Source: an uncultured Phycisphaerales bacterium
Lineage (GTDB): Bacteria; Planctomycetota; Phycisphaerae; Tepidisphaerales; Tepidisphaeraceae
DNA length: 64,000 nt
Assembly: GCA_963844715.1 (NCBI GenBank)
Contig: CAWJPJ010000007.1
Location: 448,001 to 512,000 of the forward strand
Reading direction: 5' to 3'
Part shown: one piece after another, positions 17,024 through 29,828 of the stretch
Layout: every line of letters starts with the position of its first letter
How positions within the stretch are numbered: the stretch's first letter is position 1
The notes under the pieces: generated by a model
The model's database searches: none
Told to the model about the DNA's origin: nothing
Seen by the model: the letters and a program-made list of their open reading frames with translations, nothing else
Made by a program: the position numbers and the translations under genes

Positions 17024-17055
17024 GGGGGGCATTCTACTTACAATCGGCTGCGATG
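17021..17055. promoter_or_regulatory. Back-to-back -10 elements driving two divergent, probably leaderless glycosyltransferase genes
   Basis: Minus strand TAGAAT (17036-17031) lies 7 nt before ATG 17023; plus strand TACAAT (17039-17044) lies 8 nt before ATG 17053. Confidence 0.5.
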
Positions 17056-18265
17056 CTCGGAATCATGATCCCGGAATTTCCGCTTCAGACGCACATATTT
17101 TTTTGGCGCGAGATCGTGGCGTTGAGGGCGATGGGGGTTCCGGTCGCGATATTGTCGACACGGCGTCCGCCGGAGGGAGCGTGCCGGCATGACTTCGCGC
17201 CGGAGGCGCGAGAGGAGACGCATTATGTTTATCCGCCCTCCGCGTCGTCGACGCTGGGGGCGCTTTTTACGAATCCAAAAGTGCGGCGGGCGCTCGGCTA
17301 TTTGATGAAGTTGAAGGAGACGCCGTTTCGCGAAAAATATCGCGGGCTGGGATTGTTTTTGTGCGCGGCGGACCTGAAGGCATATTCGAAGCGGAAGGGG
17401 ATCGAGCACATTCACGTCCACTCGTGCGCGGATGCGGCGCACGTGGCGGCGATGTGCAACATTCTGGGCGGACCGAGCTATAGCCTGACATTGCATGGGG
17501 ATTTGCCGGTGTATGGCGTGGATCATGCGGCGAAGATGGCGCGGGCGGCGTGTATTACCTGCGACGGGCCGCATTTGAAGGAGCAGATCGTCGAGAAGGT
17601 CGGGTATCCGGCGGAGTCGCATTTTGCCGAATTGGATGGGGTTGGATACGGAGCATTTCTCGCCGGCCTCTGGCGCGAACGGAGAGGCTGGGAAACTCAA
17701 GTTGGCGACGGTGGCGCGATTGGATGCGTGCAAGGGGCATCGATTTGCGATCGGTGCGGTGAGAAAGGCGGTCGATGCGGGAATGGATATACGGTACACG
17801 CTGGCGGGGGAGGGGCCGGAGAGACGGAATATCGAGGAGCTTGTCGCGCGATTAAATTTAACAGATCGCGTGACGCTTCTGGGCACGCGCGGGGAATCGG
17901 AGGTCTTGGAATTGCTGCGAAAATCAGATGCGTTTGTTTTGAGCAGCGTGGGGATGGGGGAGGCCGGGCCGATTTCGCTGATGGAGGCGATGAGTTGTGG
18001 ATTGCCGGCGGTTTGCAGCGTGATCGGGGCGACGCCGCAGATGCTGACGGATGGGGTGGAGGGGATGCTTGTACCGCAGGAGGATGAGGGGAAATTGGCT
18101 GACGCGTTTGTTCGGCTGGCGCACGATCCGGAGTTGCGCAAAACTTTGGGGGCGGCGGCTCGGCGGCGCGCGGTGGCGCAATTCGATAGCGCGGCGACCA
18201 CGCGCCGGATGCTGGAGTTCATCGAGCTTCACACGGGGTTGACGTTTTCGAAGGACAAGTCGTAG
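17053..18265 (+). CDS. Glycosyltransferase family 4 (EpsE/WcaL-like), one frameshift
   Basis: PEFPLQTHIFFWRE and HIHVHSCA, then ORF 17624..18265 with VARLDACKG and EAGPISLMEAMSCG. Confidence 0.8.
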
Positions 18266-20038
18266 GGGGTCTTGGATTTGATCCAGGCGATCGATCGGGC
18301 AATTTTTCTGGCGTAGGCGACGATGTCGGCGGTTCCGCCGCGGCCGCGGGCGGGCTGGCCGTCCCAGATGGCGATCAGGGCATCGCAATGATCGACGATA
18401 AAGAAACCGGCGCGTTCGTAGGCGGCCTGGCGATCTTCCATCGCGGCGGCGGCAGCGCCGGCGGGGGGTTTGCCGCGCGCGGGTTTTTCGGGGGCGGGTG
18501 GGAAGGCGATGGCGTCGGCGGAATTCAACAGAGATTGGAATCGCGTCAGGTCCGTCGCGTTGAAATCACGGCGGTAGTCGTCGGGTTCGAGAGGTAGGAC
18601 GACGCGCAGGCTGGCGTGTCTGTCCTGCATGGCGGCCTCGGCGACGAGGGAATCGGCGCCGGCGGCGATGGCGGAGAGAGCGATCATTGAGTTTTTGCCG
18701 GCTGACAATCGAGTCATTGCTTCGACGATTTTCGCGCGAATCGCGGGCTCGTCCTCGAGCTTTCGATGGCCGGTGACGCCGATGGTCATGCAATTTACAT
18801 CGGCGAGGGGAGGCGTCGGTTTAAAAAAATCCTTGCCGGAGAGGGTGATGCCAAGGGGAGCGAGATGGCGCTGCGCCTGATCGGTGGCGACTTTGATGTT
18901 TCCCCTGGATTTGGATTGCCCGGCGAAGGCGGCCTGATAGCGCGATCGGGCCGCGGAGAGTTCGCCGGTGAGAAGCTCGGCTTCGGCGAGGGTGACTTCG
19001 TCCCAATAGGAAGCGGCGAGCATTTGCTTGTCGCCGGCCCTGGCGACGGCGTCGACGCGGCGGAGGAGGAGTTGGCGCACTTCGCCGGCGAGGCGGCGGG
19101 AATCGGCGCGCGCGCCGAGCCAGAGGGCGGTGGCGGCGGCGTTGATGCCGAGATAGGCGTTGGAACTCTTGGACCCTTCCCAGCCGCCGAGATAGGCGCG
19201 GTGGCTTTTCTGGAGCATGTCGGCTTCGCCGGCGTCGAGGAAGAGCTGCTTGTAAACGCCGGCGATGATGCCGGCGGTTTCGTCGTCGTCGCGGGTTCGG
19301 GCGAGGAGCGGTCCGGCTTTTTCGACGGCTTTCTTCAGATCGCCGCGGCGCTTCCAGGCGAGAACGGTGAGTTGCTGGATGCGCAGGTCGTCGGGAAATT
19401 TGGCGAAGGCCGGGTCGAGGACGGAGAACGCCAATTCGGTTTCGCCGCGGCAGAGGAGGAGATCGGCGATCACGGCGGCGAGCGTGGCGGCGATCATGTG
19501 GGTCGGTTCAGCATCTCCGGCGGAAAGCTGGGCTACGGGATCGAAATCGGATGCGTCGACGGATTTGAGAAAGAGGGCGAGGCGCAGATCGCCGGCGACG
19601 AGGAGGGGGCTCGAATCGGACGTGATGGCGGGGAGCCTTGAACCGAGGCGGAACTGGCAGAAAAACCAGACGATCCAGCGTTCGGCGAAAAGGGCGGCGA
19701 GGTCGGCATCGGCGGGGGTGTGGTGGCGCAGAATATGGCGCACGTCGTTGCCTAATCGGCGCAGGCCGTTCGCCCAATAAAGCGTTGTGGTCGGGACGAA
19801 ATTAAATTGCGTGAGGGTTTCGAGATTGGCGAAGGCGCGTGGCGCTGGGGGTGATGCCGGCCATTTGGACGGCGGCGGCGCTGAGGACTTCGAGAATTCT
19901 GGCGCTATAGAAGATCGTCGCTTCGGTGGCGCCGATGGAGCGGACCGCGTTGAGATGGGTTAAGTCGGAGGCGAGGCTGTAGCCCTCGGCCTGATAGCCG
20001 GCGACCGGCGCGACCAGGCGGTCCGTGATCAATTCCAT
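18229..20038 (-). CDS. HEPN (DUF4145-like) + TPR (DUF4071/MAP3K-TRAF-binding-like) + SLOG (YspA-like) fusion protein, one frameshift near 19835
   Basis: ORF 19802..20038 joins the frame that reads FANLETL...WANGLRRLGNDVRH into ORF 18229..19743. TPR motifs: ETAGIIAGVYK, YLGINAA, YWDEVTLAEA. SLOG motifs: IGVTGHR, AIAAGAD, CDALIAIWDG, GGTADIV. Confidence 0.7.
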
Positions 20039-20040
20039 GA

Positions 20041-21486
20041 TTACCGCTGCGCGGTGTCGTAATACCCGATGAAATAGAGGAATCGGTTCTGGTTCATCAC
20101 CGGGATGTGATACTCGCGGGCCTTGTCGAGAGTCTCGTCGTACGACTGCTGGTCGGCCTGCTCCTCTTTTTGCCGGCGGACGTAGAACGGGTCCTGCAAT
20201 TGTTCATCGGTGAAATCCTCGACGACGGGTTCGGCGCCCATGACGACGAAATCGGTATCCACGTCGATTTTCTTCTGAATCTTTCCGCCCCAGCGATCGA
20301 TGAGGGCGAGAATCTTGTCGCGATCGCCGTCGGTGGGATGGCCGGTGTGGGCCAGATCGAATCGGCCGTAGACGTAGAAATTGAATTTGTTGTTGCGGTC
20401 GTAAATGAGATTGGCGATGAGATCGCCGGCGGAGATGCTCTTGGTGGGCTGAAGCTGAACGACGCGGCACTGGCTGGAGTCGGCGTCGACGCGCTCGACC
20501 TCGATTGAGCCGAGGCCGGTCGGCATATTGTCCTCGCTCATTCCGTCGCCGAGCTTGGGGATGCCTTCATCGCGGTCATACACCTCGAAGGTCATGCCGG
20601 GGACGATGTGATCGCCCATGCCGAGATTGATGTAGACGATGTCGTCAGAAGCGACTTGAATAATCTGGCCCGCCGTTCGCCGGACGATCGCGTCCTCGAC
20701 AGGGACGCGGCGGCCGGAGAGTTTTTCTTTGGCTTCATCGAGATCCTTATTCAACTGCGCGATTTTTGAATTCAGGTCGGCTTCGGTGGTTTCGTATTTT
20801 TTCAGCTCGGCGTTGAATTCGGTCGTGCGCGTTTCCATCGTCTGGCCGTAATCATTGAGCTGCTTCTCGTATTGATTATTGGCGGCCTGGAGCGAGTCGA
20901 GAGCCTTTTGCTTTTCGTCGTTGGCGTGAGCGACGTCCTCCTGGGCCTTGGTGACCAGCTCCTGGGCGTGGGTGATCTGCTGGGCGGCGTCGGCCGCGGC
21001 GGAATCCTGTCCCTTGCGGGCGCTGTCGGCCTGCTGCTGCTGGCTTGCCGCATAGTCCGTCAGAGCGCCGATCGCGCCAACCAGATCAGGCGGCAGAGTA
21101 ATTCCGTTGAGCTTGGCGCTGGCGGCGGCAAGGGCCGCGGTGGCTTTATCAATTGCGGCGGTGGGCTGGGCGACTGTGGTCGCGTCCTTACCCACGATCG
21201 CATCGGATAGGTCTTCCGATTCCTGCATTGAGGCGGCCAGGACCGTATGCTCGCGCAGCTTTGGGTTGCTGTCCTTGTCCCTGAGCAATGCCACAACGTG
21301 GGGGCTGGTGGTGTCCTCAACGTAGGATCGCATGCGATCCTGGGCGGTCTTATAGAGTTCTTCCTCCTTGGACAGAGCGACGCCGTAGTAGATGGCGAGG
21401 ATGGTCGCCAGGACGAAGCCGATAGTGAAAACCACGACCGCGGTGATGAGACCGCCTCGTGAGCCTTGTGGGCTTACGGGTGGCAT
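20041..21486 (-). CDS. Membrane-anchored coiled-coil protein with C-terminal BRCT-like domain
   Basis: One N-terminal TM helix, a long Ala/Gln/Glu/Lys coiled coil, a beta-rich VYINLG...GMTFEVY segment and BRCT-like LIDRWGGKIQKKIDVDTDFVVMG; GGAGG RBS. Confidence 0.65.
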   Translation of the reverse strand: MPPVSPQGSRGGLITAVVVFTIGFVLATILAIYYGVALSKEEELYKTAQDRMRSYVEDTTSPHVVALLRDKDSNPKLREHTVLAASMQESEDLSDAIVGKDATTVAQPTAAIDKATAALAAASAKLNGITLPPDLVGAIGALTDYAASQQQQADSARKGQDSAAADAAQQITHAQELVTKAQEDVAHANDEKQKALDSLQAANNQYEKQLNDYGQTMETRTTEFNAELKKYETTEADLNSKIAQLNKDLDEAKEKLSGRRVPVEDAIVRRTAGQIIQVASDDIVYINLGMGDHIVPGMTFEVYDRDEGIPKLGDGMSEDNMPTGLGSIEVERVDADSSQCRVVQLQPTKSISAGDLIANLIYDRNNKFNFYVYGRFDLAHTGHPTDGDRDKILALIDRWGGKIQKKIDVDTDFVVMGAEPVVEDFTDEQLQDPFYVRRQKEEQADQQSYDETLDKAREYHIPVMNQNRFLYFIGYYDTAQR

Positions 21487-21676
21487 AAATTATCCTCCAG
21501 AATTCCTAAACGGACACCCGGTGAGCGATAACCTTCTCACCACTGGCGGCACAGCCGCGGGGCCTTCTCGGCAGGGTGGGACAATCCGCCGTCCGCATGG
21601 ACAACCTCTAATTTAACGCGGCTGGTAAACCCAGGTCAAGAAAATCCGGCTTTGCCCATGTAAAGGGTCGTTTTTG

Positions 21677-29027: not shown

Positions 29028-29127
29028 GATTAAACAGGGACGCATCTAGTTGTTGACGATCGGCGTGTTCGGCGAGAGATTAAACCGGGACGCAGCTAGT
29101 TGTTGACGATCGGCGTATTCGGCGATA
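29028..29127 (+). repeat. Tandem 50-bp duplication forming the left REP-like end of the RAYT element
   Basis: gattaaacagggacgcatctagttgttgacgatcggcgtgttcggcgaga followed by gattaaaccgggacgcagctagttgttgacgatcggcgtattcggcgata. Confidence 0.9.
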
Positions 29128-29131
29128 GGGT
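29103..29131 (+). promoter_or_regulatory. Sigma70-type promoter for a leaderless RAYT transcript
   Basis: TTGACG, 17-nt spacer, TAGGGT, then 7 nt to ATG 29139. Confidence 0.55.
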
Positions 29132-29138
29132 GGCGGCG

Positions 29139-29828
29139 ATGCCGCGTGGGAATCGGATTACGCCTGGGGGGTGGGTATATCACGTTCTGAATCGTTCAGC
29201 GGGGCGGATCGATTTGTTTGGGCGTGAGGCGGATTTCGCGGCGTTTGAGCGGGTGTTGATTGAGGCGCAGCAACGCCATCCACTGCGTCTGTTGAGTTAT
29301 TGTGTGATGTCGAATCACTGGCACTTCGTGGTTTGGCCGCAAACGGATCGGCAGGTGACGGATTTCTTTCGCTGGCTGACGCAGACGCACGCGATGCGCT
29401 GGCGGGTGTCGCACCGGACCGTGGGGTACGGCCATGTTTATCAAGGCCGATTTAAGAGCTTTCCCGTGCAGCAGGATTTTTACCTGCTGACGCTTTGCCG
29501 GTATGTGGAGCGCAATGCGCTGGCGGCTGGTCTGGTGGATCGGGCGGAGAAGTGGCGATGGTCCAGTCTCTGGACGCGTCTGAACGGCGACGAGAAGCAA
29601 AAGGCTTTGTTGTCGACGTGGCCGCTGGAGCCGCCGCGGAATTGGATCGAACTGGTGAATCGTCTGCTGGGGGAAAGCGACGTTAAGTCGGTTGAGGCGA
29701 GCCTTGAGCGCGACCGCCCGCTGGGCACGGTTGCGTGGATCGGCGCAGTGCGCGAAAGCTCGGGCTGGAACACACAACTCGGCGTGAGGGCCGACCAAAT
29801 AAGCGGCCGACCCGTACGCGATAACTAG
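29139..29828 (+). CDS. REP-associated tyrosine transposase (RAYT, Y1/HUH, IS200-like)
   Basis: YHVLNR, YCVMSNHWH (HUH), YQGRFKS, RYVERN (catalytic Tyr) and WRWSS. Confidence 0.9.
   Translation: MPRGNRITPGGWVYHVLNRSAGRIDLFGREADFAAFERVLIEAQQRHPLRLLSYCVMSNHWHFVVWPQTDRQVTDFFRWLTQTHAMRWRVSHRTVGYGHVYQGRFKSFPVQQDFYLLTLCRYVERNALAAGLVDRAEKWRWSSLWTRLNGDEKQKALLSTWPLEPPRNWIELVNRLLGESDVKSVEASLERDRPLGTVAWIGAVRESSGWNTQLGVRADQISGRPVRDN

Follow-up and report, generated by a model that had tools for sequence, protein, structure and literature searches.

The window analysed here, a 64,000-nucleotide (nt) stretch of the genome of an uncultured Phycisphaerales bacterium (G000), carries on its minus strand a gene predicted to encode a DUF4145-type HEPN RNase domain, a TPR-S scaffold and a YpsA-like SLOG domain in one chain (table 1). 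The closest named relatives of this HEPN-TPR-S-SLOG gene belong to the Tepidisphaeraceae (Planctomycetota).

Table 1. Coordinates in the window of the gene, its predicted domains and its flanks
Feature	Position	Strand	Remarks
Whole gene, HEPN - TPR-S - SLOG	18229..20038	-	602 amino acids once the extra assembly base is discounted
Extra assembly base splitting the frame	19839..19839		left out in short-read contig X4/23; homologues intact
Predicted catalytic motif R93-x3-N97-x2-R100-H101	19735..19761	-	invariant in A3; 149/150 representatives
DUF4145-type HEPN RNase domain (predicted), about residues 14-136	19630..19999	-	VIA-align 2hsb, Z 13.5, root mean square deviation (rmsd) 2.3, 117 aligned
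TPR-S / ASK1-type TPR scaffold, predicted signal sensor, about residues 152-405	18823..19584	-	PF20308 and 5ulm match
YpsA-like SLOG domain, about residues 415-593	18259..18795	-	2nx2 match; GxD/E and GHR kept
Upstream flank, outside the module: conserved membrane-anchored coiled-coil gene	20041..21486	-	ends 2 nt before the start codon
Downstream flank, outside the module: convergent GT4 glycosyltransferase gene, frameshifted in the assembly	17053..18265	+	edge of the polysaccharide cluster

As assembled, the gene is split. An open reading frame (ORF) of 78 amino acids (20038-19802) overlaps, in another frame, a stretch that is open from 19959 to a stop at 18229. A previous reading of this DNA from its sequence alone (the sequence-only reading) had joined the two across one indel, placed near 19835, into a protein of about 600 amino acids. 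Four short-read runs from one study were aligned over positions 17500-21500. Contig 23 of run X4 (19759-19922, depth 3.5) reads across the junction and leaves out base 19839; it is the sole piece across this site among 25 of the 29 pieces listed for the four runs, and a single contig of such low depth, which could itself err, is weak evidence alone. Without the base, the codons sum to 66 + 1 + 535 = 602. The homologues P0001-P0003 (80-82% identity, 601-614 amino acids) are single ORFs to which both pieces of the window align, and the same assembly breaks the frames of polA, the adjoining GT4 gene and a number of other genes nearby in a similar way. Because the short-read contig lacks the base, the homologues are read in one ORF and the neighbours are broken in the same way, the split is an assembly artefact. 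The single gene joined across one indel is thus borne out, the indel itself being the extra base at 19839 and not at the position first given. Two separate genes or a pseudogene are ruled out by the short-read contig, the intact homologues, purifying selection and the assembly-wide frame breaks, and a programmed frameshift is unsupported since all close homologues are read in one frame. Between 7000 and 27000 of the window, many genes (polA, glycosyltransferases and other polysaccharide-cluster genes) are split by single-base breaks typical of an unpolished long-read assembly. In another assembly, P0012 is a 318-amino-acid fragment, 99% identical, with different frame breaks at both ends.

The domains were examined on an AlphaFold model built from alignment A1 (37 rows, first row P0001; pLDDT 91, pTM 0.89) and compared with 48,161 chains. 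The top three structure matches of this P0001 model cover successive parts of the protein: HEPN, ASK1-type TPR and YpsA-SLOG. At the N-terminus, where the sequence-only reading had placed a HEPN domain, the model shows the HEPN fold, with the 2hsb match of table 1 and further matches to 1ufb (Z 10.5), 1wol (10.3) and 3o10 (10.0). Since helical bundles score high by chance, the motif evidence given below matters for this call. The Pfam DUF4145 profile stays below its cut-off on the truncated window piece (E 0.011, 16.2 vs 23.1 bits) and is above it in the homologues L008, L020, P0186, P0220 and P0241. The central part matches Pfam TPR-S (PF20308; E 2e-13, 51 bits for a cut-off of 27.6) and, also above cut-off, MAP3K_TRAF_bd (E 1e-5). 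It superposes on the central regulatory region of ASK1 (5ulm; Z 15.3, rmsd 3.3, 232 aligned). The TPR-S positions E, G, K, Y, G, N and E are common to the gene and to TPR-S proteins fused to cyclases. The C-terminal domain matches YpsA (2nx2; Z 16.3, rmsd 3.1, 156 aligned). Fused homologues keep the SLOG signatures GxD/E (37/37) and GHR (34/37), the former a predicted substrate-binding signature of the YpsA clade (PMC6459960; this and the other sources cited by identifier were available in part, and are quoted for those parts). The YAcAr profile gives E 0.1 on the window protein, below cut-off; in a scan of named SLOG clades, 7 of the 13 members examined gave a weak YAcAr match, at best E 0.005, and 4 of 13 a DprA match, the first member being below both cut-offs. 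No match to the protein was found in PADLOC (2023 library) or NCBIfam, and sequence searches of the PDB gave no clear relative. Foldseek with the full model returned only TPR proteins, and the ESM Atlas only TPR-S clusters, all below 0.9. On the predicted model, together with the Pfam matches, the three folds are confirmed in one gene, in line with the domain calls made earlier from the letters (DUF4145-type HEPN, DUF4071/TPR-S, YpsA-like SLOG); the motifs then quoted are all present.

The predicted catalytic residues R93, N97, R100 and H101 are invariant among 37 diverse members (alignment A3, 37 rows), and the motif is kept with its R-x7-H spacing in 149 of the 150 best representatives. The motif stands at the end of helix 3, where HEPN families have an Rx4-6H pattern, and R94-H101 also fits an Rx6H spacing. 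Near the motif, an acidic residue of helix 2, E39, is found with Y44 and R47 in at least 90% of the rows. The R93/H101 spacing is that of R146/H154 in RAZR, a DUF4145 RNase whose defence function depends on both residues and is abolished by their mutation (PMC13017515). When two copies of residues 1-410 were folded together, the score was 0.53, against 0.00 for the best of three controls, with a pLDDT of 86 and runs agreeing in at least 90% of contacts. The mark used is reached by 20 of 30 solved homodimers and by 1 of 23 single chains. The modelled interface consists of helices 1-2 and residues 100-105, which predicts a HEPN-HEPN homodimer with R100 and H101 at the interface. HEPN dimers are textbook knowledge. 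Because they are so well known, the score shows likeness and not binding, and may reflect solved HEPN dimers.

A HEPN-only profile retrieved 513, 277 and 160 representatives at E values of 1e-3, 1e-10 and 1e-30, the last figure giving a family of 160 clusters at 50% identity. It is scattered across many phyla. Architectures were counted in the best 150 representatives, 128 of which are at least 370 amino acids long; the remaining 22 are probably fragments. TPR-S is present in all 128 long relatives. SLOG is fused in 32 (31 C-terminal, one N-terminal), and the 96 others comprise 91 with HEPN-TPR-S only and five with a RyR domain. On a FastTree phylogeny of 148 sequences, the SLOG-fused state requires 16 changes, compared with 44 when labels are shuffled. 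SLOG fusion is therefore clustered on this tree, yet has been gained or lost repeatedly. Where it is not fused, SLOG can be an adjacent gene: the next one after HEPN-TPR-S in alphaproteobacterial loci, or a SLOG-SLATT-like gene directly upstream in Geobacter-type loci. The constant unit is thus HEPN-TPR-S, with SLOG as a mobile partner. Taken as the sensor in the sequence-only reading, the SLOG domain is indeed present; as a constant sensor it gives way to TPR-S. Solo RyR genes directly upstream of HEPN-TPR-S, or RyR domains fused at either end, were seen at L006:9607-9903, L009:9669-9953, L011, L028, L049, L053 and L069 and in proteins P0073, P0149, P0184, P0186, P0242 and P0243.

We fetched 32 genome and 60 metagenome loci, 81 of which hold HEPN and TPR-S and form 47 clusters at 60% identity. 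Neighbours were counted by six-frame profile searches in the 30 clusters whose flanks cover at least 8 kb, with 264 windows of G000 as background. A conflict-type neighbour other than a kinase occurs in 21 of the 30 clusters and in 5 of the 264 background windows, which, with the conserved HEPN motif, supports the conflict effector proposed from the sequence. Metagenome-only clusters give 7 of 13, the fairer figure because the profiles were built from genome loci. Per cluster of the 30, the neighbours are TIR or DUF4062 (10), STAND or Roc (10), a separate SLOG (11), trypsin (8), RyR (6) and kinase (8). One recurrent layout is TPR-kinase / two FHA-trypsins / HEPN-TPR-S / SLOG / DUF4062-nSTAND1-WD40; a second is Cas_NE0113 / TIR-NB-ARC-TPR / SLOG-SLATT-like / HEPN-TPR-S. 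The STAND proteins of these loci mostly bear TIR or DUF4062 heads, and distant relatives adjoin NLR-like STAND, SIR2, SLATT, patatin and Cas_NE0113 genes.

Among these neighbourhoods, the alphaproteobacterial loci L018, L020, L024, L026, L027 and L099 carry, over about 3-17 kb of each, a TPR-Ser/Thr kinase gene, two FHA-trypsin genes, HEPN-TPR-S, a solo SLOG and DUF4062-nSTAND1-WD40. This cluster, with variants in L010, L013, L022, L025, L059 and L094, looks like an unnamed NLR-kinase-protease cascade. In L017, L019, L021, L023, L087, L088 and L091, Cas_NE0113 lies beside TIR-NB-ARC-TPR (or SIR2-TIR and nSTAND1) and HEPN-TPR-S, most of them with a SLOG-SLATT-like gene; a CRISPR-associated family thus occurs in a TIR/NLR operon.

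In two loci, L003 and L054, a TIR gene with a predicted transmembrane (TM) helix directly follows the fused gene. Compared with TIRs of G000, G001 and G002, the TIR domains of these genes show 48-50% identity; among the TIRs of those three genomes, identity over the TIR is 72-81%. This TIR clade was found in 12 of 81 genomes of the bacterial family, scoring highest in the three that have the HEPN gene (G000, G002 and G061); it was not found in the close relatives G019, G030 and G004. In this set of 81, the TPR-S profile matches five genomes, every one of them belonging to the 12 that are TIR-positive: G000, G002 and G061 with the HEPN gene, and G029 and G067 with a TPR-S-cyclase. Outside the genus, TIR and TPR-S co-occur in 3 of 3 cases (p about 0.0015 ignoring kinship, in a sample of incomplete genomes whose kin are not independent). 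Every genome found with the HEPN gene (G000, G001, G002 and G061) also has the TIR clade, and in G000 the HEPN-TPR-S-SLOG gene is the sole TPR-S/SLOG receiver found. The candidate signal sources of G000 are the TIR genes at C8:676567-676968, C8:209424-209822 and C8:191213-191584 (L156-L158), at least one of them membrane-anchored. A membrane helix is predicted in most TIRs of the clade, and in some it is followed on the C-terminal side by Sel1, TPR or PDZ regions; three, two of them in G000, show no helix, possibly owing to frameshifts or contig ends. The Glu position, which we presume to be catalytic, is present in the clade TIRs whose sequences were inspected. In G035 (L153:3137-7691), a further TIR-positive member of the bacterial family, the TIR-TM gene converges on patatin and SLOG-SLATT genes. 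DUF4062 was rejected as a signal source in trans, being present in one of four carrier genomes and not in G000.

At the locus itself, the upstream coiled-coil gene is present in 40 of 41 genomes of the bacterial family, and its product has weak FlgT_C and ligase-BRCT-like matches. Downstream, the GT4 gene overlaps the 3' end of the HEPN-TPR-S-SLOG gene by 37 nt. The full gene occurs in all three genomes of the genus (G000, G001 and G002) and in G061, from another genus, where the 2-nt spacing to the coiled-coil gene is lost (about 680 nt). In the wider sample, which excludes G001, it is found in 3 of 81 genomes, ruling out a core housekeeping gene. G019, G030 and G004 (the last unpublished) have an empty site, the core gene being directly followed by polysaccharide genes. 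The ratio of nonsynonymous to synonymous substitution (dN/dS) is 0.05-0.47 per domain, with dS near saturation, and 0.16-0.34 in housekeeping neighbours; the gene is under purifying selection. Its GC content is 64%, for 59% in the genome, yet the site is common to two genera, which argues against a recent horizontal arrival. No defence island was seen over about 8-30 kb of the window from ORF lists and comparison with relatives. The gene is thus an old, maintained orphan insertion at one site. The association with defence islands raised by the sequence-only reading fails for the closest homologues, which lie outside any such island. That reading had also considered homologues that might be core, syntenic and devoid of the Arg and His residues; they are syntenic and vertically inherited, and neither core nor lacking these residues. 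The HEPN gene of a close relative has, about 1 kb upstream, a transposase (L046:3-206) similar to that at 29100-29828 of the window, which may explain the contig-end position of the HEPN gene in G002.

Architecture, motif, selection and genomic context rest on data and the dimer geometry on a model; ligand, source, activity and purpose, to which we now turn, are inferred. We propose, with a probability of about 0.5, that the protein is a Thoeris-like RNase effector of the TPR-S type, gated by a second messenger, with the TIR signal supplied in trans. A TIR enzyme, once its sensor is triggered, would convert NAD+ into a messenger resembling cyclic ADP-ribose (cADPR); in G000, the likely source would be the mostly membrane-anchored TIR clade (C8:676567, C8:209424 and C8:191213). 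Binding of the messenger by TPR-S would switch on the composite HEPN site, and the resulting RNA cleavage would stop translation and leave the cell dormant or dead, which would restrain a phage or another attacker. The exchangeable SLOG could act as a second sensor or as a signal-degrading timer that sets the threshold. A more specific version is tentative: a cross-chromosome pathway in which membrane TIR receptors with outward Sel1/TPR sensors would produce the NAD-derived messenger, read through the ASK1-type TPR of the stably inherited, separately encoded HEPN-TPR-S-SLOG protein, which would cut RNA, with SLOG as threshold or off-switch.

Several observations weigh against the TIR-gated effector. 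The locus has neither a TIR nor a defence gene in its flanks, and the protein is recognised by neither PADLOC nor NCBIfam; the link of TPR-S to TIR-fold or SLOG genes holds at the level of the protein family, and at this locus consists of the fused SLOG only. A TIR gene in the operon of the effector, a trait of Thoeris, is lacking here and found only in homologous loci such as L003 and L054, two near-identical loci that are the only physical link between the TIR clade and the gene. Inheritance at one site in two genera, with dN/dS values like those of housekeeping neighbours, does not resemble a defence gene with fast turnover. Of the 12 TIR-positive genomes, seven lack a TPR-S receiver of the present type (with no more than 38 candidates scored in each), the four genomes with the HEPN gene are closely related (two changes on a core-gene tree that partly rests on G004), and the TIR query came from G000 itself. 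Finally, 9 of the 30 clusters have no recognised partner nearby, as have 5 of the 7 clusters with fused members and 6 of the 13 independent clusters.

Among the alternatives, the RNase could be switched on by a protein event, the TPR binding a phage protein or an activated STAND oligomer, or being cut or phosphorylated by neighbouring trypsin-like proteases or TPR-kinases. The trypsin-like and kinase genes counted above and the conserved kinase-trypsin-trypsin-HEPN/TPR-S-SLOG-nSTAND1 block of L018, L020, L024, L026, L027 and L099 are consistent with such a trigger, as is the activation of the DUF4145 RNase RAZR by phage proteins that it binds (PMC13017515). We nevertheless regard it as unlikely: the STAND proteins carry mostly TIR or DUF4062 heads, the polar TPR-S positions are shared with cyclase-fused proteins, and no trypsin or nSTAND1 partner of the kind linked elsewhere is present in G000, apart from one weak trypsin match.

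It is also doubtful, if one keeps the TIR-messenger wiring, that the protein is a domesticated signalling RNase that slows growth or reshapes the transcriptome after an envelope or surface cue and has no anti-phage role. The constant position, with a core gene on one side, a polysaccharide cluster on the other and probable read-through from the core gene across the 2-nt gap, would suit this role, and purifying selection, the membrane helix and C-terminal Sel1/TPR/PDZ regions of the candidate TIRs, and related TPR-S-SLOG proteins that drive cyclases, a signalling output, point the same way. Neither plasmids nor phages gave a full-length match. However, the distribution is very patchy (the site is empty in G019 and G030), G061 does not retain the 2-nt coupling, the family is scattered over many phyla, and its distant members adjoin the conflict genes listed above.

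Quite improbable is a true stand-alone system, in which the chain itself would sense infection, for instance through a SLOG or TPR-S domain detecting or making a nucleotide signal from NAD+ or phage-altered nucleotide pools. Fused forms are more often alone (partners in 2 of 7 clusters with fused members vs 19 of 23 unfused clusters, p 0.014), and, according to one preprint, NAD+ is converted to a cADPR isomer by a TPR protein of this class itself, through cleavage (10.1101/2023.05.26.542521). However, SLOG is missing from three quarters of the long relatives (96/128), all gene-bearing genomes found also have the TIR clade, and the fused group is small (seven clusters, one mostly split). The term stand-alone, used in the sequence-only reading, fits the locus and probably not the mechanism, since relatives adjoin TIR or STAND genes and the TIR clade co-occurs in trans.

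The protein belongs to the TPR-S class. Its predicted sensor resembles that of type VIII Thoeris and its nuclease that of RAZR, but it is a member of neither, because there is no TIR gene in the operon, the effector differs and a zinc finger is lacking. It shares its TPR scaffold with the TPR-S systems (Burroughs and Aravind 2020; PF20308; BcTir/Tpr; ASK1 scaffold). For the BcTir/Tpr class, the available part of one preprint lists TIR, YspA/YpsA, patatin, LSDAT and calcineurin neighbours, the first three in common with the present family; no HEPN RNase output is among its seven assembly groups, the term HEPN having 0 occurrences in that part (10.1101/2023.05.26.542521). Type VIII Thoeris (TIR and ThsI) likewise has a TPR predicted messenger sensor fused to an enzymatic effector: ThsI, a CMP hydrolase with TPR, responds to canonical cADPR, and the system shares loci with SLATT effectors, as the HEPN-TPR-S family does (bioRxiv 10.64898/2025.12.03.692087). 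By the description of ThsI, the comparison not being one of sequences, the present protein differs by a HEPN in place of the CMP hydrolase, an additional SLOG and the lack of a TIR in the operon, and the candidate TIRs of the HEPN family are membrane receptors or NLR heads. The same preprint counts RNases among 29 putative effector types. ThsA of type I Thoeris (SIR2-SLOG) also fuses SLOG to a toxic enzyme (PMC9503650); here, in contrast, SLOG best matches YpsA and is dispensable across the family, the predicted activity is that of an RNase and not an NADase, and the TIR gene is not adjacent. RAZR, or PD-T7-4 (zinc finger and DUF4145 HEPN), has the same type of HEPN with R-x7-H, a dimeric composite site and abortive RNA cleavage triggered by phage ring proteins (PMC13017515). 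The sensor of the present protein is TPR-S/SLOG, and no RAZR-type N-terminal Cys4 zinc finger is seen in the alignment or the model, in which HEPN begins at residue 14.

RNase L and Csm6/Csx1 offer an analogy, each combining in one chain a sensor domain for a nucleotide messenger with a HEPN-class RNase. Their sensors (ankyrin/kinase and CARF) and messengers (2-5A and cyclic oligoadenylate) are unrelated to those proposed here. Both are listed as HEPN families in a survey that, in its available part, lists no TPR fusion for DUF4145 (PMC3710099), and a HEPN-TPR-S protein is not described in the available parts of PMC9503650, PMC7159879 and PMC8195603. The searchable literature, whose coverage leaves out key papers of the Aravind group and the tables of the Thoeris preprint, yielded no HEPN-TPR-S or HEPN-TPR-S-SLOG protein; such a fusion may have been predicted earlier, for example by Burroughs and Aravind (2020).

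Since 2020, TPR-S has been predicted to sense NAD-derived signals, and the part of the literature covered holds no direct binding test. An RNase output would provide an easy readout for the ligand question, which is relevant to how the human ASK1 scaffold arose. The family described here is sizeable and escapes both PADLOC and NCBIfam; with it, RNA cleavage seems to join the outputs of TIR signalling. The arrangement of the gene and the TIR clade suggests that signal source and effector may be unlinked in the genome, in which case operon-based searches for types of Thoeris (bioRxiv 10.64898/2025.12.03.692087) discard them by design. If the cross-chromosome pathway is true, the protein would be the first HEPN RNase activated by a TIR signal, a bacterial counterpart of the logic of a Toll-like receptor combined with RNase L, and would serve as the RNase branch of an unnamed, larger conflict cluster of the NLR-kinase-protease-RyR kind.

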